In this document: in pieces, positions 1 through 26,027 of the stretch
Numbering within the stretch: the stretch's first letter is position 1
Layout: each line of letters opens with the position of its first letter
The notes under the pieces: generated by a model
What the model saw: only the letters and a program-made list of their open reading frames with translations
What the model was told of the DNA's origin: nothing
Database searches by the model: none
UHGV virus genome: UHGV-1403449
Direction: 5' to 3' (one strand)
DNA from: a virus
DNA length: 28,791 nt
Position numbers and translations under genes: made by a program

Positions 1-339
1 CATCCCCGTTTTCTTACCGTCGGACGTGACGCCACCGATAATATTGGAGGTGGTTTCAGCTTCGGTTTCGCCCTGCGCCACGCGCACAACAACCGTCACG
101 GGCTTTGACTGATCGGCAATAGCATCCAGCGAACGGGCCAGCGTGCCGGACTCGCCTGCTTTACCGCTGGCCTCCAGCACATCCGTCAGCAGAACCGGCT
201 TGTTGAGGGGGAACACGGACGCATCAGCATCATCGCCGGTGCAGACCATACCTACGATAGCAGTGCTTACCGTGGTGAGGGAGCGGGTGCCGTCGTTGAC
301 TTCAACAACGCGCACCCCGTGGTGGTAATCCTGAGCCAT
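1..339 (-). CDS. P2 FI-like contractile tail sheath protein, N-terminal part only (gene runs off the left edge of the window)
   Basis: Reverse-strand ATG at 339..337 preceded by AGGAGG; translated N-terminus [51 protein letters not shown]... closely resembles the P2 FI sheath N-terminus as recalled from memory. The track's 143..328 plus-strand ORF is antisense to it. Confidence 0.7.
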
Positions 340-422
340 AGCGGCGAACCTCCTGATTGGAATAGGCTTCGCCCTATGTTGTATTGATTACGTCACGCAG
401 ACAGCTGCGCGGCGTTGTCCTG

Positions 423-980
423 TTAATCACACAATGTCGCAGGATATTTGCGGTATAACGTAGAGACACCCACATCAAAAATTAAAGCTACCCGCTGCCG
501 TGTTTCACCTGCAGCAATTAACCTGCCTGCCTGCGCCCATTGCTCTGGCGTCAGTTTTGGTCTTCGCCCTCCAACCCTGCCTTTAGCCCTTGCAGCTTCC
601 AGTCCCGCACGGGTTCGTTCCACTATCAGCTCACGCTCCATCTCCGCCAGCGCCCCCATAACGTGAAAGAAAAACCGCCCCATTGGCGTACTGGTGTCTA
701 TGCTGTCAGTCAGACTACGGAAATTAACTCCGCGCTGCCGGAGTTCTTCTATCAGGGTAACAAGGTGTCGCATGCTTCTTCCCAGCCTGTCGAGTTTCCA
801 TACGACCAGCGTGTCTCCCTCTGATAACGTCCTGAGCAATCTTTTTAGCCCTGGCCTGTCTGCTGTTTTTCCGCTCATTTTGTCTTCAAAAATTAGCTCA
901 CATCCTGAGCGTTCCAGAGCACCACGCTGCAGCGCTGTGTTTTGCTCACTTGTTGATACGCGCACATAGCCGACTAACAT
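423..980 (-). CDS. pin: Serine recombinase, DNA invertase of the Hin/Gin/Cin/Pin family (tail-fibre inversion)
   Basis: Translation MLVGYVRVSTSEQNTALQ...VVWKLDRLGRSMRHL...GRRPKLT... has the resolvase/invertase catalytic-serine N-terminus and a C-terminal HTH. ORF is open to 998 but the ATG at 980..978 (MLVGYVRV) matches the family's start. It lies next to the invertible fibre cassette. Confidence 0.9.
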   Translation of the reverse strand: MLVGYVRVSTSEQNTALQRGALERSGCELIFEDKMSGKTADRPGLKRLLRTLSEGDTLVVWKLDRLGRSMRHLVTLIEELRQRGVNFRSLTDSIDTSTPMGRFFFHVMGALAEMERELIVERTRAGLEAARAKGRVGGRRPKLTPEQWAQAGRLIAAGETRQRVALIFDVGVSTLYRKYPATLCD

Positions 981-1041
981 TTGTTTTCCCTTATGCAAAA
1001 GTCCAAATAATGCCAGCCAGGCGGGAAAACAGCATTTTCTT

Positions 1042-1059
1042 AAACGTTGGTTTAGGAGA
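1042..1059. repeat. Left inverted repeat / candidate crossover site (gix/hix/pix-like) of the invertible tail-fibre segment
   Basis: TTAAACGTTGGTTTAGGAGA at ~1040-1059 matches the reverse complement of 2922-2946 (GCAAACCTTGGTTTGGGAGA) at about 16 of 20 positions; AAAC..GTTT core as in hix/gix sites. Confidence 0.6.
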
Positions 1060-1426
1060 TATCAGTGCTACAGGTGTTGCGACAGGTAGTATGGGCGAAA
1101 CCGGATATGCCATATTTCCGATGATGATTGGCGGTGCACGTAAGACTTTTATTATGCAATGGGGATTGCTGACGCCTCTGAAATCAGGTGGCTATGTGAA
1201 TATTAACCTTCCTGTCGCTTTTCCTACTATGGTGATGCAGGCATATGCAACACATGATAATGCGACACTAAACACACGCCCGACAGTATATGCAATTACT
1301 ACAACAAGCCGAACCACTATCACTGCGACGGCGACGTGCTTAGATGCTGGCTCAGTGGGCGCTACAGTGACACGCAGTAGTGACGATACTGCGTGTTACG
1401 GTCGTTATTTTGCAATAGGGTGCTGA
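1060..1426 (+). other. Silent alternative tail-fibre C-terminal cassette (Sv-prime-like), promoterless in the current orientation
   Basis: Plus-strand ORF 950..1426 crosses the left repeat; the peptide from ...NVGLGD onward is Gly/Thr-rich and fibre-like, and NVGLGD mirrors NLGLGE at the constant/variable junction of the expressed fibre gene. It is followed immediately by a plus-strand tail-fibre assembly gene. Confidence 0.6.
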
Positions 1427-1427
1427 A

Positions 1428-1871
1428 ATGAATCTTAAATATTTTTCTCCATCTGAAAATGCGTTTTATGCCGGGGAGCTTAAAGAAAGCTATATCGCTG
1501 CTGGCTCATGGCCTTCTGATGCCTCGGAGGTTGATGAAAGTCTTTATCTTGAGTTTATCGATAAACCGCCAGCAGGTAAGTATCGAGGAGTGGATAATGC
1601 AGGAATGCCCTGCTGGCTTGAAATTCCTCCTCCCACAGTAGAGGAAATGGCATCGAATGCAGAGAATATAAGACAGCAGCTCATTGATAAGGCAAATGTT
1701 TATATAAACAATCGTCAGTGGCCGGGAAAAGCAGCGATAGGCCGTTTAAAGGCAGATGAACTGGAACGATATAACCTTTGGCTGGATTATCTGGACGCAC
1801 TGGAACTGGTCGATACTTCCGGTGCGCCAGATATTGAATGGCCTACGCCTCCGGCAGTTCAGGCCAGATGA
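1428..1871 (+). CDS. Tail-fibre assembly chaperone, alternative copy (U-prime / Tfa-like) inside the invertible segment
   Basis: 147 aa; the C-terminal ...RYNLWLDYLDALELVDTSGAPDIEWPTPP motif parallels the C-terminus of the minus-strand Tfa (NAVLDYIDAVTATDTSTAPDVIWPELP). The two genes are convergent. Confidence 0.8.
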   Translation: MNLKYFSPSENAFYAGELKESYIAAGSWPSDASEVDESLYLEFIDKPPAGKYRGVDNAGMPCWLEIPPPTVEEMASNAENIRQQLIDKANVYINNRQWPGKAAIGRLKADELERYNLWLDYLDALELVDTSGAPDIEWPTPPAVQAR

Positions 1872-2445
1872 CATCCGGCGCGGTGCTGGTATCTGTTGCC
1901 GTCACCGCGTCAATGTAATCCAGCACGGCGTTAAGTCGGGTTGTTTCTGCCTGCGTCAACTTCCGTCCGGCCTGTAATTTCAGCTGAATCAGACTAATGG
2001 AAACCATTGCTGCATCAATCAGTGACTGGCGCTGTGCTTCTGCCGCTTCTACTGCGGCGCTATGCTGTGCCTCAGTATCCGTCACCCATTTCTCACCATC
2101 CCATTTATCATATGGCGTTAACGGGGCGATAGTGGTTGTATTTTCAGGGTAATCACCCGGAGCTGTGATTTCTTTGGCGTCTCCCGTTTCGGTGTTATAG
2201 ACGATTTCACCGCGATGGTCTGACACATATTCCCATGATTTTAAATCCACAGAACGGCAAATTGTATAACCAGCTTTATGTGTAACTGGTGCATCTAAAC
2301 AAGAACATGCCGGGATACCGACGCCAACCGCAAGATATTCAGTTGATGTGGAAATATATTCCCGCGTTTCACCATCATAGTTATAAACGGTAATATCCCC
2401 TGCCTTTGTAGCAACAAGTCCACTATTTAATATTGCTTTATCCAT
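1843..2445 (-). CDS. Tail-fibre assembly chaperone (U / Tfa-like), copy expressed in the current orientation
   Basis: 200 aa with the conserved Tfa C-terminal motif; start overlaps the stop of the upstream fibre gene (translational coupling). Confidence 0.8.
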   Translation of the reverse strand: MDKAILNSGLVATKAGDITVYNYDGETREYISTSTEYLAVGVGIPACSCLDAPVTHKAGYTICRSVDLKSWEYVSDHRGEIVYNTETGDAKEITAPGDYPENTTTIAPLTPYDKWDGEKWVTDTEAQHSAAVEAAEAQRQSLIDAAMVSISLIQLKLQAGRKLTQAETTRLNAVLDYIDAVTATDTSTAPDVIWPELPEA

Positions 2446-3329
2446 TATGCTGCTCTCACGATATAGTTAAATGCAATGTTTCTTGGTCTGTTCTCTGAGG
2501 CAGTTGGCACTACTCTTGAAGCATCAAAATTGACTAAATGAGGATTGTTTGGGGTATTTGGAATGATTGTGGTGTTACCTATCGTATTACGAAGTGCTGA
2601 TTGACTTACAAAAACACCACTCGCTGTATTAAAGCTAATAGCCGCATTAGCTTCGGTTTGTCCATTACCAAATGTGCCGGTTATATTACGAATAGCATCC
2701 CCCTGAGCAGACAGAATTTCGCGCCCCGCGTCAATACCGCGCCCGTCATCCCAACCACGAATAAACTCACCACGTAAATCAGGCAATTTATTTGTCGGAT
2801 AAGCCTTTGCCAGTTCCGGGTATTCTTCAGCAGAAAAAGCGGCACCGTTGCATTTCAGCCAGCCTGTTGGCGGAGTGGCGGAAGGCCACGGAACAGGGAC
2901 ACCAACAGGTAATGCAGAGCCTTCTCCCAAACCAAGGTTTGCGAGACCGTTTTTTGACGTTAATACAGGAGTCCATTTTGCTGATGGCGGCTGGCTACCA
3001 ATATTTGCATTTTGTAAGGACTGATAAGATTCACCGTTATGTGTGCAGATCGAACCGATATGATATTCCTGTTCTGCATGCCACTCTGGAACCCCCATTT
3101 GGTGCTGATACGCAATGAACTGACTCATTGCATACATTGCCGCATTGAAGTCCTCAAGCGAGGGGTGTTCGGAAGCGCCAACAATGCCCCATCCGCGAAG
3201 GAAAGATGCCGTAATTTGCGAGGTCAGGTCATCCGCCTGATTTGTTCCACCAAACACGGTTCTTTCCATTCCCTGTGCATCAGAGGCAAAAGCCCGAACA
3301 TCTCCCTGATATCGTACAATCTTAGACAT
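2445..3329 (-). CDS. Tail fibre protein (constant N-terminus of about 130 aa fused to the currently selected variable C-terminus carrying a tail-collar-type domain)
   Basis: 294 aa; C-terminal WLKCNGAAFSAEEYPELAKAYP...LPDLRGEFIRGWDDGRGID matches the phage tail collar motif; GAGGA Shine-Dalgarno before the ATG at 3329; the right inverted repeat lies at codons ~131-136 (NLGLGE). Confidence 0.8.
   Translation of the reverse strand: MSKIVRYQGDVRAFASDAQGMERTVFGGTNQADDLTSQITASFLRGWGIVGASEHPSLEDFNAAMYAMSQFIAYQHQMGVPEWHAEQEYHIGSICTHNGESYQSLQNANIGSQPPSAKWTPVLTSKNGLANLGLGEGSALPVGVPVPWPSATPPTGWLKCNGAAFSAEEYPELAKAYPTNKLPDLRGEFIRGWDDGRGIDAGREILSAQGDAIRNITGTFGNGQTEANAAISFNTASGVFVSQSALRNTIGNTTIIPNTPNNPHLVNFDASRVVPTASENRPRNIAFNYIVRAA
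2925..2942. repeat. Right inverted repeat / candidate crossover site of the invertible segment, inside the tail-fibre gene
   Basis: Reverse complement of 2922-2946 aligns with 1040-1059 (see left repeat); position matches the constant/variable junction of the fibre protein. Confidence 0.6.
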
Positions 3330-4044
3330 GGATTTTCCTCGAAAAAAAACCGCCCTGGTAGGCGGTATTAAACTTGCTGGCGAATCCTCTGGCCGAAGGG
3401 TTTCGCGAGAAACCGAATGTCAGACCAGGAGTCACCTGATAAAAATAATCGTATCGAACGCCCGCAGGTTTCGGCAGCAGGCCAAGCTTCACAATCAGGC
3501 GTAACTCTTCAACTGATACCCGCGGCGAAACGTTCAAAGCAAGCGTCATGTCTTTTCTGTCGGTCACGTAAGCTTCGCCGTTGAAAGCCGTCTGTATAAC
3601 ATCCTGCAGGCTGACCCGATCGTCTGACGCTATCGTTGCACCTGCGGCGTTTCGCGCAATTTTGACCCGAAGGAACCTGCGATACTCATTGTCAGCCAGT
3701 TGATAGTCACCATATGCCGGCGAAAACTTGCTGTAGAAAGGTGCGCCGACATACGCCGCATTAGATTTACTGTCGAAGCCTGCGGTATTCAGATGTCCGT
3801 CAAACCCGAAAAATACACGGGCAATAACAGCAGGCACACTACGGTGAAGGCCGACTATCCGGCCAATGACATCAAGCCGGTATCCGGTAACCCGGTCGAG
3901 ATCAAAGTTATCTGGGTTACGAATAAAATCGGCGATGATTTGCCAGTGCCTGAGCATGGCCTGTATCTCTGATCTTGCTTTTTTCTTTTCCCAATATTGT
4001 TTGATGAGCATTAGCGTGTAGCGGTTAATGATGTCGTCATTCAC
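3322..4044 (-). CDS. Baseplate wedge / tail protein (Mu gp48-like, e14 YmfQ-like)
   Basis: 240 aa ORF directly upstream of the fibre gene and overlapping its start; the position corresponds to Mu gene R / e14 ymfQ. Assignment by synteny and general resemblance. Confidence 0.5.
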   Translation of the reverse strand: MNDDIINRYTLMLIKQYWEKKKARSEIQAMLRHWQIIADFIRNPDNFDLDRVTGYRLDVIGRIVGLHRSVPAVIARVFFGFDGHLNTAGFDSKSNAAYVGAPFYSKFSPAYGDYQLADNEYRRFLRVKIARNAAGATIASDDRVSLQDVIQTAFNGEAYVTDRKDMTLALNVSPRVSVEELRLIVKLGLLPKPAGVRYDYFYQVTPGLTFGFSRNPSARGFASKFNTAYQGGFFSRKIHV

Positions 4045-5222
4045 TGGACCACCTCGTTAACGTCTATATTTTCCACACTCAACGTGAACTTTCCCTGAAA
4101 GCCTGGCGATAACTCAGCATCGGTGTAATCTGCCCCATTACTGCTAATTTGCAGATTGGTCAGCACAAAATTTACCCGTCCTACCCCATACCCATTCTCA
4201 TAAAATTCATTGGCATCCACAGACTCACCAATATGCATGGTGCGTGATGCAAGAGATTTTTTGAGAGTATCGATATCTATCGGTTCGCTTTGAATCTTCC
4301 GGCGGGCATTAAGCCTGATATGAAGCGGCTTATAGATGGGCCGATCAAACTGAAGTTCATGGGCTATCAGAAATGAAGTGCCGTCAGGCCGAATCAGGGT
4401 CTCGGTAAAACGTCCGGTTATGCTGCCTTTCGTTCCCGTTCCACCGCCTTTCTGTTTAACCATCACCTCCACAATTTCTGAAATCGCTCCCCCCTCAACG
4501 ACCAGCCATATTGAATTGGCCGGGATACCCGTCGTCGGATTATCAATTTTTGTGTCGTTCTCTCCGATATTCAGATCAATTACACCTGTCAGTTGAGCAA
4601 CTTTAGCGAAAACCGCCCCAGTGCTACCTGTTGCCGGGTTCTCAAGCGACCGGTTCCGGCGTTGCCTGAATTCTTCAGGCGTTTCCTCATCCCGACCGAC
4701 CACAACCGCGGAATCAGAGATAATGCTCACAATCCCTGGTTCTGGTGTGAGTTGAGTGAAGGTGTCGTTCACAAGCCCAGTAACTTTCCCAAAGTTTTGA
4801 GCAAAAAAGGTGGCTGTTGTGACGCCCGCCGGAACGGTCACGTCCTGTCGGATAGCCCAGACCTGATTTGCCTGGTCCCGTATCTTGTACCCGCTATAGA
4901 GAAGCACCGGCCTGTCTGTTGTGACTTTAAGGTCACGCTGAGACCGGGAGCCGGGGCGAAGGAAAAGCCCGTGAAGTTTGGCGATAATCTGCTGCATATC
5001 ACCAGTATTAAAATCGGGGTCCATTTGGGAATAAAGCCATTGCAGCGCGGCTTCAATATCTGCCCGAGCCTGAGCTTCGATTGCCACGCGTTGACCGTCG
5101 GGAGATTCCTGGTCTAAATCGATATCCTGACCATAAATTCCCTTATATCCGTCGCTCAGTTCCTGAAATAACTCCCGGAGAGTGCTTGTCTCAAGGCCGT
5201 TGTCGCTAAACTGTAGTGCCAT
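4041..5222 (-). CDS. Baseplate J-like protein (Mu gp47 / P2 gpJ family)
   Basis: 393 aa; position and size match baseplate J/gp47 in a Mu-like tail module; overlaps neighbours by 4 nt. Confidence 0.6.
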   Translation of the reverse strand: MALQFSDNGLETSTLRELFQELSDGYKGIYGQDIDLDQESPDGQRVAIEAQARADIEAALQWLYSQMDPDFNTGDMQQIIAKLHGLFLRPGSRSQRDLKVTTDRPVLLYSGYKIRDQANQVWAIRQDVTVPAGVTTATFFAQNFGKVTGLVNDTFTQLTPEPGIVSIISDSAVVVGRDEETPEEFRQRRNRSLENPATGSTGAVFAKVAQLTGVIDLNIGENDTKIDNPTTGIPANSIWLVVEGGAISEIVEVMVKQKGGGTGTKGSITGRFTETLIRPDGTSFLIAHELQFDRPIYKPLHIRLNARRKIQSEPIDIDTLKKSLASRTMHIGESVDANEFYENGYGVGRVNFVLTNLQISSNGADYTDAELSPGFQGKFTLSVENIDVNEVVQ

Positions 5223-5586
5223 TCTTCAACGCTCCGTTGACCGGGAAGGTGATCGTCTGCTGGTCATAGACGGTCTCAATGCTGAGTTCGATTTTTTGTG
5301 ACCGGGTGGCCTTATTGACCTCCATCGCCAGAGCGGTAATGCGCATAACCCCATCCGTCGCCAGCGTCACGCGCTCTATCTCCCGCAGAATCTCCTGCTC
5401 GGTGTTTTTCTCTGATAACAGGTAAAGCCAGTCGATGTTGTCATCCATGTTGAGAGGATTATCGTTTTTGAACGAGCGGATCCGGCATTTGGCTTTCTGC
5501 GCGATAGCAGCACCGCCAGTTATATAGTTTGCCTTCCCGCGCCCAAATCCCCAGTCGTCATTTTTATCAAGTGCTGAAACAATCAT
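5206..5586 (-). CDS. Small baseplate protein (Mu gp46-like / GPW-like)
   Basis: 126 aa ORF between the gp45-like and gp47-like genes; synteny-based. Confidence 0.45.
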   Translation of the reverse strand: MIVSALDKNDDWGFGRGKANYITGGAAIAQKAKCRIRSFKNDNPLNMDDNIDWLYLLSEKNTEQEILREIERVTLATDGVMRITALAMEVNKATRSQKIELSIETVYDQQTITFPVNGALKNGTTV

Positions 5587-6200
5587 GAGATCTCCGTGAC
5601 AATACCGTTGGTAACTGTGATTGTTTTCCCGTCATCGCTTCGAAATGAACCAGACACCCCAGACTTACCGCCTGTCTTTACCTGGGAATATTGAAGTACA
5701 TTCAGAACATCGCATTCTTCCAGAGTCGTCTTACCATCTTTCTGGGTAATATTTCCTGTGAGGTTTAAATCACCCTCGTGGTCAGAATCCCCCTTCATCA
5801 TCCTGTTCTTCTTAGGGATATTGATCGCGGTAGCCTGTGGGTTAACCCCACACAGAGCGAAGCCATCTGAATAATCGTGCATACGCATTTCAAGTGGTGA
5901 AACAAAGTCGCTACCCGCATACCAAGCGTCATAACAACGCTCAGAGATAAGGACGAGGCAATAGTCACCAGCCGCAATTGGTTCGGCGATATAACTATCA
6001 CCGCCTTGCAAAATTACCGGGGGGACTTCAATGAACTCTGGGAGTTGCTTGCTGCTCCCTTTCACAACCCGATTGATAACGGGGACGCAACTGATTGTTT
6101 TGTCATTTACAGACGTTATTTTTGCGACAACAATGGTGTGAACATCGGCCAGAGCAAATTCAACACCCAGGCCGATAGTGTCGTGAAGTTCTTCGATCAT
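5583..6200 (-). CDS. Baseplate spike / assembly protein (Mu gp45-like, gpV-like)
   Basis: 205 aa; follows the hub-like gene in Mu order; synteny-based. Confidence 0.45.
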   Translation of the reverse strand: MIEELHDTIGLGVEFALADVHTIVVAKITSVNDKTISCVPVINRVVKGSSKQLPEFIEVPPVILQGGDSYIAEPIAAGDYCLVLISERCYDAWYAGSDFVSPLEMRMHDYSDGFALCGVNPQATAINIPKKNRMMKGDSDHEGDLNLTGNITQKDGKTTLEECDVLNVLQYSQVKTGGKSGVSGSFRSDDGKTITVTNGIVTEIS

Positions 6201-6849: not shown

Positions 6850-7782
6850 GTAATTTCCGGCAGGCTGGCATACCACCTTCTGATACCAGGCTGCCCCGTT
6901 GTTCTGCCCGCTGGTTTCAATCTGGTATATCTTATAAACCCCGTTTAACGCGGGGTTCGTCACGCTTTCAACAGCGCAAAGCCCACCGATCACCAGCATA
7001 GGATTCAGTTTCGTATCGAATACGATCTGCCCTTTCGAGGATTTGGCTAAGGTACTCGAGTCAGTATCTTTTTTGCCTGCCGGATCCGTATCAGGCTCAT
7101 TGGTTGGCATCTTGGCTTTCTTCCCCCCGTCATCCTGTGCGCTAATCTTCGTTGCCTGAGGCGTATTTAGCAGACCGCTACGCGCATTCACGACTGGAAT
7201 GTTACCCGATGTAACCTCATTAGCCTTGAGGATGTGGACGCGCTCATCTTTGATGAAAAATGACTCGTCGGACGCAAGGGTATCGGTAAGAATTTTACTG
7301 GAGCTACCTACCAGAACCTTCGGCCTGATGAGTGCTTGTTGCTTCGTCACAGAGCCTTTTTTCGTGTTTGGCATATCCTGCAAGACAGAATCGACGACCT
7401 GATCTTTCCCGCGTACCGTGCGCGATGTGAAAGCGTTGATATAGTCGTGGCCACCGTCTTCACATTCCAGGCTGACGATGTGGATCGCCCCCTCACGCTT
7501 TACTGCTCCGCTTTTAACCGAACCCTGAAATACCTGGCGCAGCTTGCCGTCGTAACCAACCTCGAGTCGAACGGGGATATACTTCTCTTCATCTTCGGAC
7601 TTGAGCAATTGCAGACGCGTGGAAGGCTTTAGCCCGTTGATGGACACACTCAGCTTGCCGAGTGACTTCTTGTCCACAGTTTCCAGCGCCTTGAATGACA
7701 CGGTGATCGGTGGCTCGATAATCACTGCTTGATTGCCGATCCCCACCGTCAGCCGATAATCACGGTAAAAAGTATCCATCAC
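6835..7782 (-). CDS. Baseplate hub-like protein (Mu gp44 position)
   Basis: 315 aa ORF in Mu gene-P position between the N-like gene and the gp45-like gene. Confidence 0.45.
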   Translation of the reverse strand: MMDTFYRDYRLTVGIGNQAVIIEPPITVSFKALETVDKKSLGKLSVSINGLKPSTRLQLLKSEDEEKYIPVRLEVGYDGKLRQVFQGSVKSGAVKREGAIHIVSLECEDGGHDYINAFTSRTVRGKDQVVDSVLQDMPNTKKGSVTKQQALIRPKVLVGSSSKILTDTLASDESFFIKDERVHILKANEVTSGNIPVVNARSGLLNTPQATKISAQDDGGKKAKMPTNEPDTDPAGKKDTDSSTLAKSSKGQIVFDTKLNPMLVIGGLCAVESVTNPALNGVYKIYQIETSGQNNGAAWYQKVVCQPAGNYSVVN

Positions 7783-8114
7783 GGCACGTCTCCCCCGCGA
7801 ATATCAATCATCTCTTCCGGCGTGACCAGATACATTTCGATGCGACCACTGGCGAAGTCGTCAGCCCGATATGGGTCAATGCCGGAATTGTCAGCGCAAA
7901 GTAACACAACGTCGAAAGGCCAGTTCTTGTGCCGAAAATGTAGCGTCCCGAGGGACAGCTTCACGCCGTCGATGTAATCACCGTTGTACTCCACGCGCAT
8001 TTTCCACATTTCAACCGTAGGCAGATAACGAATAGTGACCACAGCCTCACCACGGTCAAAAATCAGAACATGCCGCTGGATAGGTTCGTCAGTGATGTTG
8101 GTTATCGGATCCAT
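7779..8114 (-). CDS. Hypothetical tail/baseplate protein
   Basis: 111 aa ORF, 4-nt overlap with the downstream gene, embedded in the tail operon; no motif recognised. Confidence 0.35.
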   Translation of the reverse strand: MDPITNITDEPIQRHVLIFDRGEAVVTIRYLPTVEMWKMRVEYNGDYIDGVKLSLGTLHFRHKNWPFDVVLLCADNSGIDPYRADDFASGRIEMYLVTPEEMIDIRGGDVP

Positions 8115-8126
8115 ACGTTGCTCTCA

Positions 8127-8933
8127 TTAGAATAAAGATTTCGCCGCCCCTTTTAACGAGGTCATGACTGATTTTGACTGGCTGGTCCCGTTACTTTTTT
8201 TAGAATTATCAGCGGGCGTCTGCGCCCCCTTATTAGCAACGCCCGCCGTTTTTGATTTAGCAGCTGCCGAGGGGGATTTGAAGTGCTGCTCAATCGGTGC
8301 GGTAGTCAGTTGCGTGAAGGTGATTTTTGTAAAACTGGCTTCAAACTTAGTTTCCATCGTTTGATTGTCGGTACTGATGGTCAGGCCGCTTAACGCCATA
8401 TTTTCATGGGTGCGATAATCCACCTCCACGGAAATAAGCTGCTTGCCGTAGTACACCCCCTCAATGAAGTCGAGAAATTGCTCGCGTATACCTTTAGCGC
8501 CACCAGTAGACGGGTTGCCCACCAGCCCAAACAGGTCGGCTCCTTTATCAGCCAGGCGTTTTGCCTTTAAGATGGCCTGCTCTGCGCGGTCGGCAATCTC
8601 ATTCATTTTTTGCAACTGCTGCTGCGTCTTTGCGGGGATGTACTCCAGCACCTCACCATACTTCGAATAATCTGGCATCAGGCTAAAAGAAGAGTTTGGT
8701 TTCGCATCGACAAAAATATCGGCAACAACACCGCTGATTTTTATCGTCAGCGGGCCATTGATAATGTCGTCTGACGCGTTACTGCCATCCTCCAGCACGT
8801 CTACAGGAACCTGAGACGGGTATTCAGTAGCATCGCTCACTCGGGCAAACATTGAGAACCCGCCGATCCCTACCTTTTTAACAGTATCTTTGCCAGAAGA
8901 TTGCGCCTGCATGAGGCCGTCTAGAATCCCCAT
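8127..8933 (-). CDS. Putative tail protein (position of Mu gpN DNA-circularisation protein)
   Basis: 268 aa ORF immediately after the tape measure gene; start/stop overlap with the tape measure gene; synteny only. Confidence 0.4.
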   Translation of the reverse strand: MGILDGLMQAQSSGKDTVKKVGIGGFSMFARVSDATEYPSQVPVDVLEDGSNASDDIINGPLTIKISGVVADIFVDAKPNSSFSLMPDYSKYGEVLEYIPAKTQQQLQKMNEIADRAEQAILKAKRLADKGADLFGLVGNPSTGGAKGIREQFLDFIEGVYYGKQLISVEVDYRTHENMALSGLTISTDNQTMETKFEASFTKITFTQLTTAPIEQHFKSPSAAAKSKTAGVANKGAQTPADNSKKSNGTSQSKSVMTSLKGAAKSLF

Positions 8934-10729
8934 TACCGACCTCCTCTGCCACTCAACCGGTTGGCATCCTTCATGTTTTGTTGCAGGCTATCTGCCGCAG
9001 TATTCCCGGCGACAACCGGATCGGATGTGTTGATGTGAATCGTGTTCTGCTGGCTGACGCTTGAATTGCTTGTCACGCCACCACCACCGAGTCCCACCGC
9101 AGCATTCATGCCGTAAGGAATACCACCAGGACTCATGCCGCCGTTACCGCCGCCGGTTACTCCCTGCTGCTGTTCATCCTCACCGACCCCGAAGAATGAC
9201 TTTGTCGCATTCCAGGCATTTGAAGCAGCGTTGCTGATAATATTGCTGATGTATTCCCCCAGCCCAGCAAAGATGTTTTTCGCCCAGTCAATAAAAGCCG
9301 TGAATGGTTTTTTCATCAGTTCGACGCCGTTATCGAAGATTTTTACCACATCCCCCCATGCACCTTCAAAATCGCCAGCGACTAACTTCCATAGTGCTGA
9401 GAACATCAGCTTCGTGTTTTCGATGGCAGTAGTGAATACATCAACGACAAACGCGCCGGCATCGCCAAACACGTATTTAATCGCATCACCAACGACACCA
9501 AATGCACCAGTGATAAACGCTATAAGAGAATCAAAGATATTCTGCGCATCCTTCATCGCACCCTGAAAATCACCCGTAAACGCACCTGTGATGAGATGCC
9601 ACACCATCCTGAACATGGAGGCAATCGCATCAGCAAGCGGTTTAAACACGCCAATAGCGTAGTTTATGAAAGCCATGAGCGACGCTTTCGCCTCTTTCAG
9701 TGCGGGAACAATATCTATTCCCCAGTTATCTTTGAAGAAATCAGCAATAACGCTTTGGCCACCTTCCATAGCCGTCAGCAAATCATCGATAACAAGAACG
9801 ACAGCGATAATGGCGGCAGTGATCAGTACGACAGGAGAGAATATGGTTGCCAGCACCGCTCTAAGTCCTATAGCAGCAATTTTCCAGGCTACAAATCCGG
9901 TGGTAATAAGACCAATAATCGGCAGGAAGCGACGGATCATACCCATAACGGAGAAGATAATTTCCCCAAGATGGGCCAGCCCGTTTTTGATGAGATCCTT
10001 ATTAGCAATGAGAATGTCCGTAAACCCATCCACCAGGTCTTTCAGTACCGGCACAAATCCGACGGCAACCTGAAATTTGATACCATCAAAGCCTTTCCCC
10101 AGCGTTGTCAGAGAATCGTTGTAGGCTGCAAACTGATCGGCCTGGTCTTGCGTGACAACACCAAGCGCCTCGGCCTTGTTCTGCAACGAAGATATTTCTT
10201 CGCCCGTCATGGATAGCAACTGCACCATGGAACGGTCGATACCCATCTTATCCAGAACAGAAAACTTCTCTGCCTGGCTCATGCCGTGCAGTTTGTCGGC
10301 CAGTTCACGAAATATCACATCGGAGTTTTTTACCTGCCCGTTCATATCCTTGAACTGAAGGCCCAGCCTTTCCGCAACGTCTTTCGCCTCCCCCTCACCG
10401 GTGGAAACGAACTCCCCCACTCTTTTTGTCATCTCACCTAGCGAAGCCTGCAACGCATCAACACTTGAGCCATTTACAGACGCCGCGTAACCCAGTGACT
10501 GAACGGTCTCGATCGCCACCCCCGTTTCCCGGGAGAACTGGACCAGCGGATCAATAGACTGACTGACAGACGTCACCCAGCCAGCAACCCCCGCAGCCGA
10601 ACCGGCGATAGCGGCTCCAAGCCCGGCAAGCAAACCAATAGATGCTTTCAGATTTGCATTGAAGGTTTCCTGCGGCGCCAGATTACCGATAAAACCGAAT
10701 TTGGTAATAAGCTCGTTAACTATCGCCAT
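8933..10729 (-). CDS. Tail tape measure protein
   Basis: About 600 aa, largest tail ORF, directly downstream of tube and chaperone genes; long Ala/Gly-rich hydrophobic central segments typical of tape measure proteins. ORF is open to 10795 but the ATG at 10729 (MAIVNELITKFGF) is the probable start. Confidence 0.8.
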   Translation of the reverse strand: MAIVNELITKFGFIGNLAPQETFNANLKASIGLLAGLGAAIAGSAAGVAGWVTSVSQSIDPLVQFSRETGVAIETVQSLGYAASVNGSSVDALQASLGEMTKRVGEFVSTGEGEAKDVAERLGLQFKDMNGQVKNSDVIFRELADKLHGMSQAEKFSVLDKMGIDRSMVQLLSMTGEEISSLQNKAEALGVVTQDQADQFAAYNDSLTTLGKGFDGIKFQVAVGFVPVLKDLVDGFTDILIANKDLIKNGLAHLGEIIFSVMGMIRRFLPIIGLITTGFVAWKIAAIGLRAVLATIFSPVVLITAAIIAVVLVIDDLLTAMEGGQSVIADFFKDNWGIDIVPALKEAKASLMAFINYAIGVFKPLADAIASMFRMVWHLITGAFTGDFQGAMKDAQNIFDSLIAFITGAFGVVGDAIKYVFGDAGAFVVDVFTTAIENTKLMFSALWKLVAGDFEGAWGDVVKIFDNGVELMKKPFTAFIDWAKNIFAGLGEYISNIISNAASNAWNATKSFFGVGEDEQQQGVTGGGNGGMSPGGIPYGMNAAVGLGGGGVTSNSSVSQQNTIHINTSDPVVAGNTAADSLQQNMKDANRLSGRGGR

Positions 10730-22268: not shown

Positions 22269-22829
22269 ATGAAATACTCACAGCAAGAAAAACTACAGAT
22301 CATGATGCTCAGTGATATTCACCGAGCATTAGAAATTGAAAACTCATTTGATCCTGACCTCATTGACGAAGCAGTGAGCACGGATAACTACTGGGCTTTA
22401 TCCTGGGAATACCCAGGCCTTCAAGATGAAGAAGAGGAGACCCCCTGGGAAGTCCAGCTTTTCGTTGATACCTATGATATGTATGACATTCTCCAATACA
22501 CATACGAACGATTCAGTGCGGAAGACAAAGCAGAGGTTGCCAAATCTATTCGTAATTTCGATGAGAAATTATCACTCACATTCCCCGGATTTGACGGTAA
22601 CAACGAATCAAAGTTTCTTTTGATTGGTAGTTTATTGAAACGAATGGGACGGTTTAGCGGCAAAGACGATCTCACCCGGAACTCTCACATGCCCTCTGTT
22701 GCAATTTACCAACGTATGCTTGAAGTTTTCCTTCCTGCCAGAGCTAAGAATTGGGTTCACAATGTGGGCATTACTAAACATGATTTTATCGATACACTCA
22801 ACGCGAGAGTGCATCCAGAAAATCGTTAA
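22269..22829 (+). CDS. Moron gene: putative YfbU-like (UPF0304) protein
   Basis: 186 aa ORF on the opposite strand between the spanin and terS genes, with its own promoter-like and terminator-like elements; C-terminal ...YQRMLEVFLP... and overall pattern resemble E. coli YfbU as recalled from memory (unverified). Confidence 0.5.
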   Translation: MKYSQQEKLQIMMLSDIHRALEIENSFDPDLIDEAVSTDNYWALSWEYPGLQDEEEETPWEVQLFVDTYDMYDILQYTYERFSAEDKAEVAKSIRNFDEKLSLTFPGFDGNNESKFLLIGSLLKRMGRFSGKDDLTRNSHMPSVAIYQRMLEVFLPARAKNWVHNVGITKHDFIDTLNARVHPENR

Positions 22830-22834
22830 ACGTT

Positions 22835-22856
22835 AATGCCCGCAAATGCGGGCATT
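22835..22856. terminator. Hairpin at the convergent junction of the plus-strand moron and the Rz gene (possible bidirectional terminator)
   Basis: AATGCCCGC-AAAT-GCGGGCATT perfect 9-bp stem with a 4-nt loop; the flanking T-run is weak. Confidence 0.45.
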
Positions 22857-23382
22857 ATTCATCATGGCGCCTTATTACTTTGTCGTAGGTGCGCTCACAG
22901 GTATTTCCGGCGACATAACGCTCATCAGCCTCTTTTGCGAATTTTCCCGCCAGATCGTCAGCTTCGCTGAGCAACTGGGCGAGCAATATTCCGGCCTCGG
23001 CTTTTGCCTGGCTTGTTGCTGCAATTGCGGAAATTCTGCCTGTTTCACTTGTTGCGAGCTGCCGTTGTATTTCGGCGAGCTGCTGTTGCAACCCACTGCG
23101 AGCACGCTTAGCAGCGTTAGCATCAGCCTGTACTTTTGCCAGTTCTTCATCGGCTTTCTCTCGTTCTTCATCTACGGCCCGCTGGCGGCGCTGCTCTTCT
23201 GCTCTTTCGGTTACTTCACGCTGCAATGTAGTGGTCGCATCAGTAAGGTCACGTTGTGCCCACTGCAATTTCCAGGATGAGTCCGCCTCCTGATACCCGC
23301 GTGAATAACACCAGTACGCGACCGCGCATAACAAAAAAGCCACCAGCAGTATTTCTGCCAGCGGCTTCCAGTAAGCCCTCAC
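22855..23382 (-). CDS. Rz: i-spanin (Rz-like)
   Basis: N-terminal transmembrane segment (LAEILLVAFLLCAVAYW) followed by a long charged coiled-coil (EEQRRQRAVDEEREKADEELAKVQ...); probable GTG start at 23382 overlapping the endolysin stop (GTGA); ORF is open upstream to 23445. Confidence 0.75.
   Translation of the reverse strand: MRAYWKPLAEILLVAFLLCAVAYWCYSRGYQEADSSWKLQWAQRDLTDATTTLQREVTERAEEQRRQRAVDEEREKADEELAKVQADANAAKRARSGLQQQLAEIQRQLATSETGRISAIAATSQAKAEAGILLAQLLSEADDLAGKFAKEADERYVAGNTCERTYDKVIRRHDE
22875..23150 (-). CDS. Rz1: o-spanin (Rz1-like lipoprotein) embedded in another frame within Rz
   Basis: ORF entirely inside the Rz coding region in a different frame; signal peptide with lipobox (LLSVLAVGC), Pro-rich mature part; probable start at the second Met (MKNWQKY...). 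Confidence 0.7.
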   Translation of the reverse strand: MKNWQKYRLMLTLLSVLAVGCNSSSPKYNGSSQQVKQAEFPQLQQQARQKPRPEYCSPSCSAKLTIWRENSQKRLMSVMSPEIPVSAPTTK

Positions 23383-24456: not shown

Positions 24457-25248
24457 TCAATTACCCAATGGCTTATGTAGTTTAAATGGGTTAAGTGATT
24501 CTTCATTTTTCAGGCTTATCTTTAAATTCACAGCAATCAGTGAATGATCGTCAGTTGGTCCAGCGCGCTGTATCCGCTTAAAAAGATTGGTTGAAAAGTT
24601 AGTAGCATTCTTCAATGTATTGGGAGAAAAACGCGGGCGGCGTTCCCAGAAGTGATGGGCTCCATCGGACATCAGAAAAAGAGAAACAACACCGTCATGG
24701 TCCATCAAATCTGACAGGGGTAACGAAATATGCTGAAATTTTATTGGCAGGACTTTAGAAATAGCTGCAGTAAGCATGTTCTTTCCTGGTAAGTCTTCCA
24801 ATTCCCTTTTCGTATATAACCCATCGTCGAGCAACTCTTGATGCTGTGAGTGATCTTTCGTTAGTAGTTTTAATTTGTTATCAATTTTTACATACACCCG
24901 AGTATCGCCTACATGGATTACATTAAGTAACTCACCATGTACAACACAGTAGGATAATGTTGTTGCGGCCTTGCGCTTCTCTGAATCGAACTGAGATAGT
25001 TCAGATATTTTGTCTTTTGCACCACTAAGTATCGCATCAGGATCAGAACTGGCTTTCAGTTTATGAGTTGCGACATAGTCTACTGCAGCTTGCGCTGCTT
25101 CTTTAGCACCAGCATAAGACCCGACACCATCAGCAATAGCAAAAATGAAGCCATCATCACATTGTTGCGGGAGTAGTAACGCATCTTGGTTTTCACGACC
25201 ATGATCTTTGGGGCATGAAAATGCACCACAGCTCAACAACTCAATCAT
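24457..25248 (-). CDS. PP2C-family Ser/Thr protein phosphatase
   Basis: 263 aa; metal-binding motifs of PP2C phosphatases (IADGVGS, GDTRVY, MSDGAHHF); start overlaps the kinase stop by 4 nt (ATGA). Confidence 0.75.
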   Translation of the reverse strand: MIELLSCGAFSCPKDHGRENQDALLLPQQCDDGFIFAIADGVGSYAGAKEAAQAAVDYVATHKLKASSDPDAILSGAKDKISELSQFDSEKRKAATTLSYCVVHGELLNVIHVGDTRVYVKIDNKLKLLTKDHSQHQELLDDGLYTKRELEDLPGKNMLTAAISKVLPIKFQHISLPLSDLMDHDGVVSLFLMSDGAHHFWERRPRFSPNTLKNATNFSTNLFKRIQRAGPTDDHSLIAVNLKISLKNEESLNPFKLHKPLGN

Positions 25249-26027
25249 TTGCCTCTCCTTGCTGCAACAATATCATCAAGAATGTCTATCATCTCAGTGA
25301 CAGAATCGTACCTTGAACGAGGCGTAAATGCCGCTGATTTATCGATTAATGTCGTTATACCGTCAATATGAGATAGATTCATTTCACTAGTAATAACACC
25401 TAGCGCGTAAATATCTGATTTCTGTGTATATACTCCGCGTTTAGCCTCGTCAGACATGTACTTAGCAGTGCCAATACCCATTTTTTTGTTTTGAAGTACA
25501 CCTGACAAAAAATCAGATTGGGCTTTCGAATCCATACTTTTGATTAGGCCGAAATCGGAAATTTTGTAACAGCCTCCTTCAAACTTGAGGATATTCTCAG
25601 GTTTCAGATCCCTGTGAAGCAACCCAGCGTCATGGATATACTTAACGCCTTCAAACACCATCTTCAGGGCTAACAGCTTTTCATCATCAGAAAGAACGCC
25701 CGCTTTTAGTTCGCTTCTTAGGTCTGTTTCTGCCAACTCCATCACAAACCAAGGGTTTTCTATGCTTAAATGATGTATGCAAATTCTTACAACATGATCA
25801 TGATTGCACTTGGCTTGGTAGTCGACTTCACGCTTAAACCGACGCTTCCAGTCATCTACACTAAAATATTCATTTAATAACGCAGGATTAACTGAAAGAA
25901 CTTTCCTTGCATACTCACCACAAAGATGGCTATCGGTGTTATATACCTCAACCTTTTCCACACGACCAAAAGCACCAAAACCTAGATCTCTCAATGGTTT
26001 TATAAGGTAATTACCCCTGGGTTCCAT
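25245..26027 (-). CDS. Hanks-type (eukaryotic-like) Ser/Thr protein kinase, catalytic domain only
   Basis: 260 aa; Gly-rich loop LGFGAFGRV, catalytic loop HRDLKPENIL, DFG motif (ISDFGL), activation-segment TAKYMSDE and subdomain IX DIYALGV. Confidence 0.85.
   Translation of the reverse strand: MEPRGNYLIKPLRDLGFGAFGRVEKVEVYNTDSHLCGEYARKVLSVNPALLNEYFSVDDWKRRFKREVDYQAKCNHDHVVRICIHHLSIENPWFVMELAETDLRSELKAGVLSDDEKLLALKMVFEGVKYIHDAGLLHRDLKPENILKFEGGCYKISDFGLIKSMDSKAQSDFLSGVLQNKKMGIGTAKYMSDEAKRGVYTQKSDIYALGVITSEMNLSHIDGITTLIDKSAAFTPRSRYDSVTEMIDILDDIVAARRGK

Follow-up and report, generated by a model that had tools for sequence, protein, structure and literature searches.

A probable Pin/Gin-type tail-fibre inversion switch between flanks of two prophage types in virus genome UHGV-1403449

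The stretch of DNA analysed here (28,791 nucleotides of UHGV virus genome UHGV-1403449, hereafter the window) very probably carries a two-state tail-fibre inversion switch of the Pin/Gin type (Din family), allelic to the P segment of e14. The type of switch is itself ordinary and well known. Its oddity lies in the flanks, which come from two unrelated prophage types and may possibly have been joined by an assembly error. The original prediction, made from the letters alone, had described the architecture of Mu G, P1 C and e14 P, and every element of it (invertase, inverted sites, in-frame crossover, two C-termini with their chaperones) was recovered at the positions it had given. The features on which the argument relies are the following.

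1..339, minus strand: start of a P2-like tail sheath gene, its N-terminal 113 codons, truncated at the edge of the window (Pfam Gp18_domIII_N, E 1.2e-11)
423..980, minus strand: predicted serine DNA invertase of the Pin/Gin (Din) family, 185 aa, apparently intact, with catalytic Ser9 in the YVRVST motif
897..959, minus strand: candidate recombinational enhancer region, with 15-mers at 945-959 and 897-911 in the 5' end of the invertase gene
1035..1060, minus strand: left (invertase-proximal) crossover site, ATCTCCTAAACC-AA-CGTTTAAGAAAA read on the minus strand, core at 1047-1048
1049..1426, plus strand: silent alternative fibre C-terminus of about 125 aa (Gp53-like_C, PF21882, E 1e-11), in frame with the site (NVGLGD...)
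1428..1871, plus strand: tail-fibre assembly chaperone of the silent cassette, 147 aa (Caudo_TAP, E 1.1e-31), with a TfaP-like C-terminus
1843..2445, minus strand: TfaE-like chaperone of the expressed cassette, 200 aa (Caudo_TAP, E 4.6e-32), its start overlapping the fibre stop codon
2445..2933, minus strand: 3' part of the expressed fibre gene that varies and inverts, residues about 133-294, with a Collar domain
2922..2947, plus strand: right (fibre-proximal) crossover site, TTCTCCCAAACC-AA-GGTTTGCGAGAC read on the plus strand, core at 2934-2935
2936..3329, minus strand: constant 5' region encoding fibre residues 1 to about 131, within a DUF2612/DUF3383 myovirus late operon
3322..4044, minus strand: DUF2612/baseplate wedge-1 gene, lying immediately upstream of the fibre gene (Pfam DUF2612, E 4e-29)

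The invertase and its crossover sites

The open reading frame at 423-998/980 matches the Pfam families Resolvase (E 5.7e-52) and HTH_7 (E 1.2e-13) and adjoins the left site, in agreement with the Hin/Gin/Pin-family invertase proposed at 423-980. Its product is predicted to be a small serine recombinase with an N-terminal catalytic domain and a C-terminal HTH, as in the Din family; it is 82.5% identical to e14 PinE, 72.4% identical to Mu Gin and 52.7% identical to the 182-aa enzyme native to prophages of the backbone type described below. The best solved structure for it is that of Gin (3uj3, E 7e-87, residues 1-182 aligned).

In Hin, Gin and Cin, recombination relies on a Fis-bound enhancer acting in cis and located inside the 5' end of the invertase gene. 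That end of the gene aligns with pinE at 75% nucleotide identity over nt 1-120, and the centres of the two candidate enhancer 15-mers lie 48 bp apart, at positions homologous to those in gin and pinE; the 15-mer GTATCAACAAGTGAG is found here versus GTATCAACAAATGAC in pinE and gin. The strict Fis consensus had no match in the invertase 5' end. Inversion of the segment would presumably need Fis together with the enhancer within the invertase gene.

The longest inverted repeat within 300-3600 has arms of 33 nt, at 1027-1059 and 2923-2955, that are 73% complementary, and the conserved cores of these arms are two 26-bp sites in opposite orientation, imperfectly palindromic and with the same asymmetric 2-bp core in both, as is usual for the Din family; here the core is the dinucleotide AA. 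They correspond to the near-identical inverted repeats previously noticed at about 1040-1059 and 2922-2946, and they are unique in the window, where the site motif TCTCCYAAACCAASGTTT occurs just twice, once on each strand, with an expectation of 0.00 from 100 shuffles; with 3 mismatches allowed, the sole extra match is the palindromic other half of the right site. With no motif matches expected by chance, a fortuitous inverted repeat is ruled out. A multi-site system, shufflon-like or of the kind of Min of p15B, is ruled out as well by the presence of two sites only (at up to 3 mismatches) and of a serine recombinase, not the tyrosine recombinase Rci.

An alignment of the repeats with known sites, which had been suggested as a check, gave 23 of 26 identical bases both for the left site with the e14 pin-proximal site and for the right site with the e14 fibre-proximal one, whereas the Mu gix site (TTCCTGTAAACC-GA-GGTTTTGGATAA) differs in core and half-sites. 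When sites are tabulated across contigs, inner halves track the cassette and outer halves track the flank, the AA core being invariant. The outer half of the left site is identical to that of P2-like prophages (L004, L014, L028, L033, L036), and at the right site the backbone homology begins at 2921 while the homology of the inverted cassette stops at 2935.

Fibre cassettes and the two states of the segment

The fibre gene runs from 3329 to 2445 on the minus strand and encodes 294 aa. The sequence NLGLGE begins at residue 131, consistent with the placement of the right repeat at codons ~131-136, and NVGLGD stands, in frame, at the matching place of the plus-strand cassette, as had also been described. 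The variable part of the expressed fibre contains a Pfam Collar domain (PF07484, E 1.5e-15, residues 143-190) and its end is 62% identical to e14 StfE, while Pfam assigns the silent end to Gp53-like_C; the claim that the expressed variant carries a tail-collar-type domain and the silent one lacks it is thus upheld. The same is true of the two convergent chaperone genes with related C-termini, both being Caudo_TAP members whose C-terminal 65 residues are 46% identical to each other. The 200-aa chaperone shares 90% identity with e14 TfaE over 200 aa and recurs unchanged in 357 blocks of the collection, on at least three backbone types. The 147-aa chaperone is 60% identical to e14 TfaP over 91 aa, and the exact protein is common to P2-like and DUF2612-type prophages. 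A promoter and terminator scan of 300-3500 gave 5 promoter-like sites versus 4.6 in shuffles, with no excess, and has no bearing on the silencing of the plus-strand cassette.

In the proposed mechanism, the fibre gene would enter the invertible DNA at the 2922-2947 site, after a constant part of about 131 codons, and in the orientation seen it would end in the Collar-type domain, followed by the TfaE-like chaperone. The invertase (423-980) would bring this site together with its inverted counterpart at 1035-1060, and strand exchange at their common AA core would turn about 1,885 bp around. In the flipped state the Gp53-like C-terminus would continue the reading frame of the constant part, the fibre being then 257 aa long and followed by the 147-aa chaperone, and the Collar cassette would fall silent. 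Inversion carried out in silico keeps the frame, fibre residues 1-132 continuing into the Gp53-like end. The crossover point falls within the fibre ORF, and each state has an in-frame fibre and, downstream, a chaperone of its own (294 aa with the 200-aa Caudo_TAP protein as observed, 257 aa with the 147-aa one after the flip). The predicted 257-aa fibre had no exact match in a collection of 15 billion proteins. The two states plausibly target different receptors, since Pfam places their ends in separate families, Collar and Gp53-like_C.

Both orientations exist among near-identical public copies, with breakpoints at the core, this being a comparison across assemblies and not within one culture. 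In contig L033 the Collar end (window 2252-2940, 99.4%) adjoins the same invertase arm (99.9%) that in L034, L036 and the window adjoins the Gp53-like end (100%). The full segment (1042-2935, 99.74%) is present in contig L007, where a fibre constant part adjoins the end opposite to the one it adjoins in the window. In L024-L026 the backbone matches at 100% identity from 2921 onward and the homologous Collar cassette is inverted, its alignment stopping at 2935, at the core. The e14 P segment and segments of P2-like prophages flip in culture (PMC4272514), and prophages of EC958 have 26-bp sites and Collar-type invertible ends (PMC4134206). The copy in the window probably flips at present. The mega-inversion described in PMC4272514, considered as a related case, is IS-mediated and not relevant here.

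Relation to known inversion systems

Judged by likeness of sequence, the closest relative is the P/pin system of e14 rather than Mu G, with invertase, sites and cassettes highly similar and only the second cassette divergent. In the e14 P segment with PinE, from a cryptic prophage of E. coli K-12, the order is the same (invertase, site, two convergent fibre-end/chaperone cassettes, site, fibre constant part), the site core is likewise AA, the identities of invertase, TfaE and StfE-type Collar end are those given above, and the segment measures 1,797 bp versus about 1,885 bp here (PMC12529663). On the contrary, the Gp53-like end of the window is only 36% identical to StfP, and its 147-aa chaperone matches TfaP over the C-terminus only. 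The fibre constant part and backbone here are those of a DUF2612/DUF3383 myovirus, and the invertase arm, continued by mcrA in e14, is continued here by a P2-like sheath gene.

The order fibre, chaperone, alternative chaperone, alternative fibre end, invertase and sheath is shared by the window and P2-like E. coli prophages (Peduoviridae; for example phage 500465-1 and prophages of EPEC and EC958), which also have 26-bp sites of the same type and an invertible end that contains a Collar domain (PMC4272514, PMC4134206). In place of P2 gpH/I/J, the window has a fibre constant part and upstream genes from an unrelated myovirus whose early genes are lambdoid. Mu G with Gin and P1 C with Cin share the mechanism class and the gene logic (S/U versus S'/U'), and their sites are likewise 26-bp imperfect palindromes; the Mu G segment is larger, at about 3 kb, and the fibre and chaperone proteins of the window had no BLASTP match to Mu G or P1 C at E <= 1e-3.

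The native switch of the backbone, found next to yciI in E. coli VE-F5, TUM9803, NADC1036, EC17CM13 and EcE.CRE.COL, has an identical fibre constant part and fibre-proximal site, and homologous Collar and Gp53-like cassettes in either orientation. It differs at the other end, where the 182-aa invertase, only 53% identical to that of the window, is the last prophage gene before yciI, and the outer half of the invertase-side site reads CCTTTTTTATAA.

Two flanks of different prophage origin

Positions 1-1059 of the window (sheath, invertase and outer half-site) are 99.9% identical to P2-like prophages, in which the gene order is invertase-sheath-tube-...-gpD-ogr; the exact invertase protein was read in 20 contigs, and 10 of the 10 places listed for it are P2-like. 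The sheath fragment at 1..339 likewise belongs with this arm and not with the right-hand myovirus backbone. From 2921 onward, homology identifies the window as a DUF2612/DUF3383 myovirus prophage unrelated to the P2-like arm, positions 2921-4200 being 100% identical to prophages of E. coli EcE.CRE.COL, EC17CM13 and NADC1036 and 99.9% identical to that of VE-F5. All five complete E. coli genomes inspected among close relatives of this backbone carry a different invertase of their own, next to yciI. As assembled, the window is by these homologies a hybrid, its invertase and fibre arms tracing to two prophage types, an aspect that the original prediction had overlooked. With the invertase arm and the fibre constant part of different origin, the adjacent invertase may not be the native partner of the fibre, and the adjacency of invertase and segment may be an artefact. 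Given the cross-reactivity within this enzyme family, a foreign invertase would be a minor concern for function, and Pin-type enzymes are described to act in trans on another prophage (PMC12529663).

The hybrid junction was first placed at the right site, from the backbone homology starting at 2921 and the P2-like homology of GB089 ending at 2946. This placement was dropped because L007 and L008 show near-identical segments in both prophage types, and alignment locates the switch point no more finely than somewhere in 1047-2935. Exact patterns across both junctions had no match in the viral, metagenome or genome contig collections.

It comes close to an even chance that the join is an assembly chimera of two co-resident prophages sharing about 1 kb or more of near-identical segment DNA; the real myovirus prophage would then end with its own 182-aa invertase by yciI, and the switch itself would still be real. 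A repeat able to cause such a misassembly does exist in nature, as only 2 positions in 1047-2175 separate the P2-like L008 from the window, and 5 in 1042-2935 separate the myovirus-type L007 from it. The uniform distribution of the two invertases described above points the same way, as does the fact that the two arms are linked in no complete E. coli genome (no place covering at least 80% of window 1-6000). In addition, the exact 294-aa fibre was found only in one metagenome scaffold (ERZ28579748 scaffold_550); this scaffold matches window positions 1920-4200 at 100% identity and breaks off at 1920, within the segment, which is what a repeat would produce. Nonetheless, assemblers usually break at such repeats instead of crossing them, and in the complete genome L045 (OZ038585.1) a 3.5-kb block with a second invertase lies between the two sites of the backbone, its foreign-block junctions falling exactly at the crossover sites.

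Somewhat short of even is the chance of a real join, in which the invertible segments of two prophages on the same chromosome would have recombined and so fused the P2-like invertase/sheath arm to the fibre gene of the other prophage. Either the invertase, acting at the 26-bp sites, or homologous exchange within the cassettes common to both could have mediated the event, and the outcome would be a large chromosomal inversion and two hybrid prophages. It is consistent with the intact fibre frame and with homologies that meet at the sites, the P2-like one (99.9%) ending at 1059 and the backbone one (100%) starting at 2921. Precedents are the site exchange in the complete genome just mentioned and Pin-type enzymes acting on another prophage (PMC12529663, PMC4134206). 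The left site, moreover, exactly combines an outer half of P2 type with the inner half of the cassette, but it is uninformative in this respect, the same site arising in P2-like prophages with the same cassette (L034, L036). Against a real join, the same link was seen in no independent assembly and the reciprocal junction is not visible.

That the segment is a frozen relic which has lost inversion is very improbable: the single orientation in the molecule and the unmatched strict Fis consensus would suit it, but the intact invertase ORF matches copies in many genomes at 100% identity, the invariant core and the conserved half-sites are retained at both sites, and near-identical copies occur in both orientations.

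Returning to the two-state switch, the understanding of Pin/Gin-type fibre inversion dates from the 1980s, and segments homologous to this one match in 2,837 of 5,426 complete E. coli genomes (about half), so that the window adds little to what is known of it as a switch. The same cassettes, including identical chaperone proteins, are found behind P2-like, Mu-like-tail and DUF2612-type tails, and the 26-bp sites therefore mark the boundaries of host-range-exchange modules across unrelated myoviruses. Shared segments of this kind are also a pitfall in assembly and in the calling of prophage boundaries, as a contig that crosses them can join two phages, of which the window is a possible case.

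If the join is real, it represents prophage-to-prophage recombination reshaping a chromosome. We would suggest only tentatively, with more doubt than confidence, that the window records a real recombination, within one E. coli chromosome, between the invertible segments of a P2-like and an unrelated DUF2612/DUF3383 myovirus prophage, and that switches and shared cassettes act as portable recombination hot spots. Prophages would then be scrambled, large chromosome segments inverted and receptor-binding modules moved between unrelated tail types. As for the backbone itself, the DUF2612 gene provides context that marks its type, the exact protein occurring in 1,250 blocks of the collection.

Gene layout and crossover sites

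The layout, derived from ORFs and Pfam matches together with site searches, bears out the original prediction in all its details: an invertase of the Hin/Gin/Pin family at 423-980, inverted repeats at about 1040-1059 and 2922-2946, two convergent tail-fibre assembly genes between them, NLGLGE within the fibre gene, and a tail-collar-type domain in the expressed variant. The prediction is right, and the system belongs to a known kind.

Features of the left part of the window (coordinates, strand, description)
1-339, minus: tail sheath gene, start portion
423-980, minus: recombinase, 185 aa, with Resolvase and HTH_7
1035-1060: left crossover site, 26 bp, minus-strand reading ATCTCCTAAACC-AA-CGTTTAAGAAAA
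1049-1426, plus: fibre C-terminus with Gp53-like_C (silent end)
1428-1871, plus: Caudo_TAP chaperone, 147 aa
1843-2445, minus: Caudo_TAP chaperone, 200 aa
2445-3329, minus: fibre, 294 aa, with NLGLGE at residue 131 and a Collar domain at residues 143-190
2922-2947: right crossover site, 26 bp, opposite strand to the left one, plus-strand reading TTCTCCCAAACC-AA-GGTTTGCGAGAC
3322-4044, minus: DUF2612
4041-5222, minus: Baseplate_J

The longest inverted repeat found on searching 300-3600 has its arms at 1027-1059 and 2923-2955, and their conserved cores are the two 26-bp sites. Across the 28,791 bases the motif TCTCCYAAACCAASGTTT has just two occurrences, one on each strand, with none expected from 100 shuffles. 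Allowing three mismatches adds only the palindromic half of the right site. The crossover system is a simple one of two sites. Across the sites compared the AA core is constant, the inner half-site going with the cassette and the outer half with the flank.

On the minus strand at 3349-3366, in the 3'-terminal part of the gene for DUF2612, there is a strong terminator-like hairpin with a run of seven T's after it (ACCGCCTACCAGGGCGGT TTTTTTT). The start codon of the fibre gene follows about 20 nt downstream; the hairpin may act to attenuate expression of the fibre or may have arisen by chance.

Kinship with the e14 P segment and predicted inversion

With e14 PinE the window invertase shares 82.5% identity, and with Mu Gin 72.4%; Gin is also its best match among solved structures (3uj3, E 7e-87, residues 1-182). 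The e14 sites, TTCTCCCAAACCAAGGTTTTCGAGAG and TTCTCCCAAACCAACGTTTATGAAAA, each agree with their window counterpart at 23 of 26 bases and have the AA core in common with it, Mu gix being more distant. Regarding the cassettes, identity reaches 90% between e14 TfaE and the 200-aa chaperone, 62% between StfE and the Collar end, 60% over 91 residues between TfaP and the 147-aa chaperone, and 36% between StfP and the Gp53-like end. Core to core, the window segment measures about 1,885 bp, compared with 1,797 bp for the e14 segment (PMC12529663). By these identities in invertase, sites and cassettes, the window segment and e14 P are allelic relatives.

In the fibre the core covers the second and third bases of a CTT (Leu) codon, and in the silent cassette those of a GTT (Val) codon. 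When 1047-2935 is inverted in silico, the reading frame is preserved and a 257-aa fibre results, in which the constant part is followed by LGLGDISATG... and the C-terminal end is AIGC. In this flipped state the 147-aa chaperone would lie downstream of the fibre, and the Collar end would be silent and adjoin the invertase. The Fis-bound enhancer of Hin, Gin and Cin lies within the 5' end of the invertase gene. The same end of the window gene is 75% identical to pinE and contains a candidate enhancer, two 15-mers 48 bp apart at conserved positions, with no match there to the strict Fis consensus.

Both arrangements are found among relatives. Metagenome contig L033 links the invertase arm (window 1-1059, 99.9%) with the Collar end (2252-2940 of the window, 99.4%); in L034, L036 and the window the same arm is joined to the Gp53-like end (100% up to 1155). 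The myovirus-type locus L007 carries window 1042-2935 at 99.74% (5 mismatches), its Gp53-like end joined to a fibre constant part. Prophages of EcE.CRE.COL, EC17CM13 and NADC1036 are 100% identical to the backbone from 2921 and carry a homologous Collar cassette in inverted orientation, the alignment ending at 2935, the core; compared with TUM9803, homologous cassettes in these three are inverted between flanks that are 97.6-99.9% identical. Inversion in culture is reported for the e14 P segment and segments of P2-like prophages (PMC4272514). The same 26-bp sites recur in EC958 prophages, along with invertible ends of Collar type, one segment apparently having been flipped in trans (PMC4134206), and PinQ, the enzyme of Qin, acts in trans to invert the e14 segment (PMC12529663).

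Hybrid flanks and their origin

The sole unusual aspect of the switch is its flanks. By sequence comparison the window is a hybrid: 1-1059 is a P2-like sheath/invertase arm, and 2921-28791 belongs to a myovirus of the DUF2612/DUF3383 type whose early genes are lambdoid. The first arm is 99.9% identical to P2-like prophages, and the exact invertase is found in the P2 order invertase-sheath-tube-...-gpD-ogr in all 10 places shown (20 contigs read). To the right from 2921, the window shares 99.6-99.8% identity across about 21 kb with prophages of E. coli VE-F5 and NADC1036. They represent a myovirus type with a DUF3383 sheath and a DUF2612 wedge, in which Q and NinG are lambdoid. The native invertase of this backbone (182 aa) ends the prophage beside yciI-tonB in 5/5 complete genomes inspected; it is only 53% identical to the window invertase, and the outer half of its site differs as well (CCTTTTTTATAA).

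Near-identical segments occur in both phage types, the P2-like locus L008 having only 2 differences from the window across 1047-2175, so that the switch point between prophage types can be placed no more finely than within 1047-2935. Invertible cassettes are common to several phage types and move between unrelated tail modules, the exact 200-aa chaperone being present in 357 blocks of the collection searched, behind P2-like, Mu-like (icd/e14 site) and DUF2612-type tails. At four compared loci (L015, L017, L020 and L019) the identical 200-aa TfaE-like chaperone lies with its Collar cassette behind Mu-like (icd/e14 site), DUF2612-type and P2-like baseplates.

Two explanations of the hybrid are about equally probable. 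One is a real rearrangement by recombination between prophages, supported by a complete genome (OZ038585.1) in which a 3.5-kb foreign block sits precisely between the two crossover sites of the backbone, and by Pin-type enzymes acting across prophages (PMC12529663). The other is an assembly chimera formed through cassettes common to two prophages: the exact 294-aa fibre occurs in a single metagenome scaffold, ending at window 1920 inside the segment; the two arms are linked in no complete E. coli genome searched; and the P2 arm is absent from 10/10 places shown for the exact wedge protein.

The block in OZ038585.1, an E. coli genome with the same backbone as the window, spans 7114-10648 between the fibre-proximal and invertase-proximal sites, and holds a further fibre end and a chaperone, along with a second invertase, two DinI genes and a gene with a hemerythrin domain. 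In a P2-like locus of GCA_022951035.1 (10104-15689), the whole sheath-tube-E-tape measure-gpU block beside the invertase is reversed relative to other P2-like loci, which may reflect an inversion of greater extent or a difference in gene order.

Further genes in the backbone

The minus strand at 24457-26027 encodes two neighbours, a phosphatase of PP2C type (263 aa) and a Ser/Thr protein kinase (260 aa). They are flanked by the gene for antiterminator Q and the lysis genes, in a location typical of morons; VE-F5 has different genes there. Between the small terminase and lysis genes, 22269-23280 carries on the plus strand a gene with a YfbU domain (186 aa) and an ORF of 144 aa, both opposite in orientation to the surrounding late genes.
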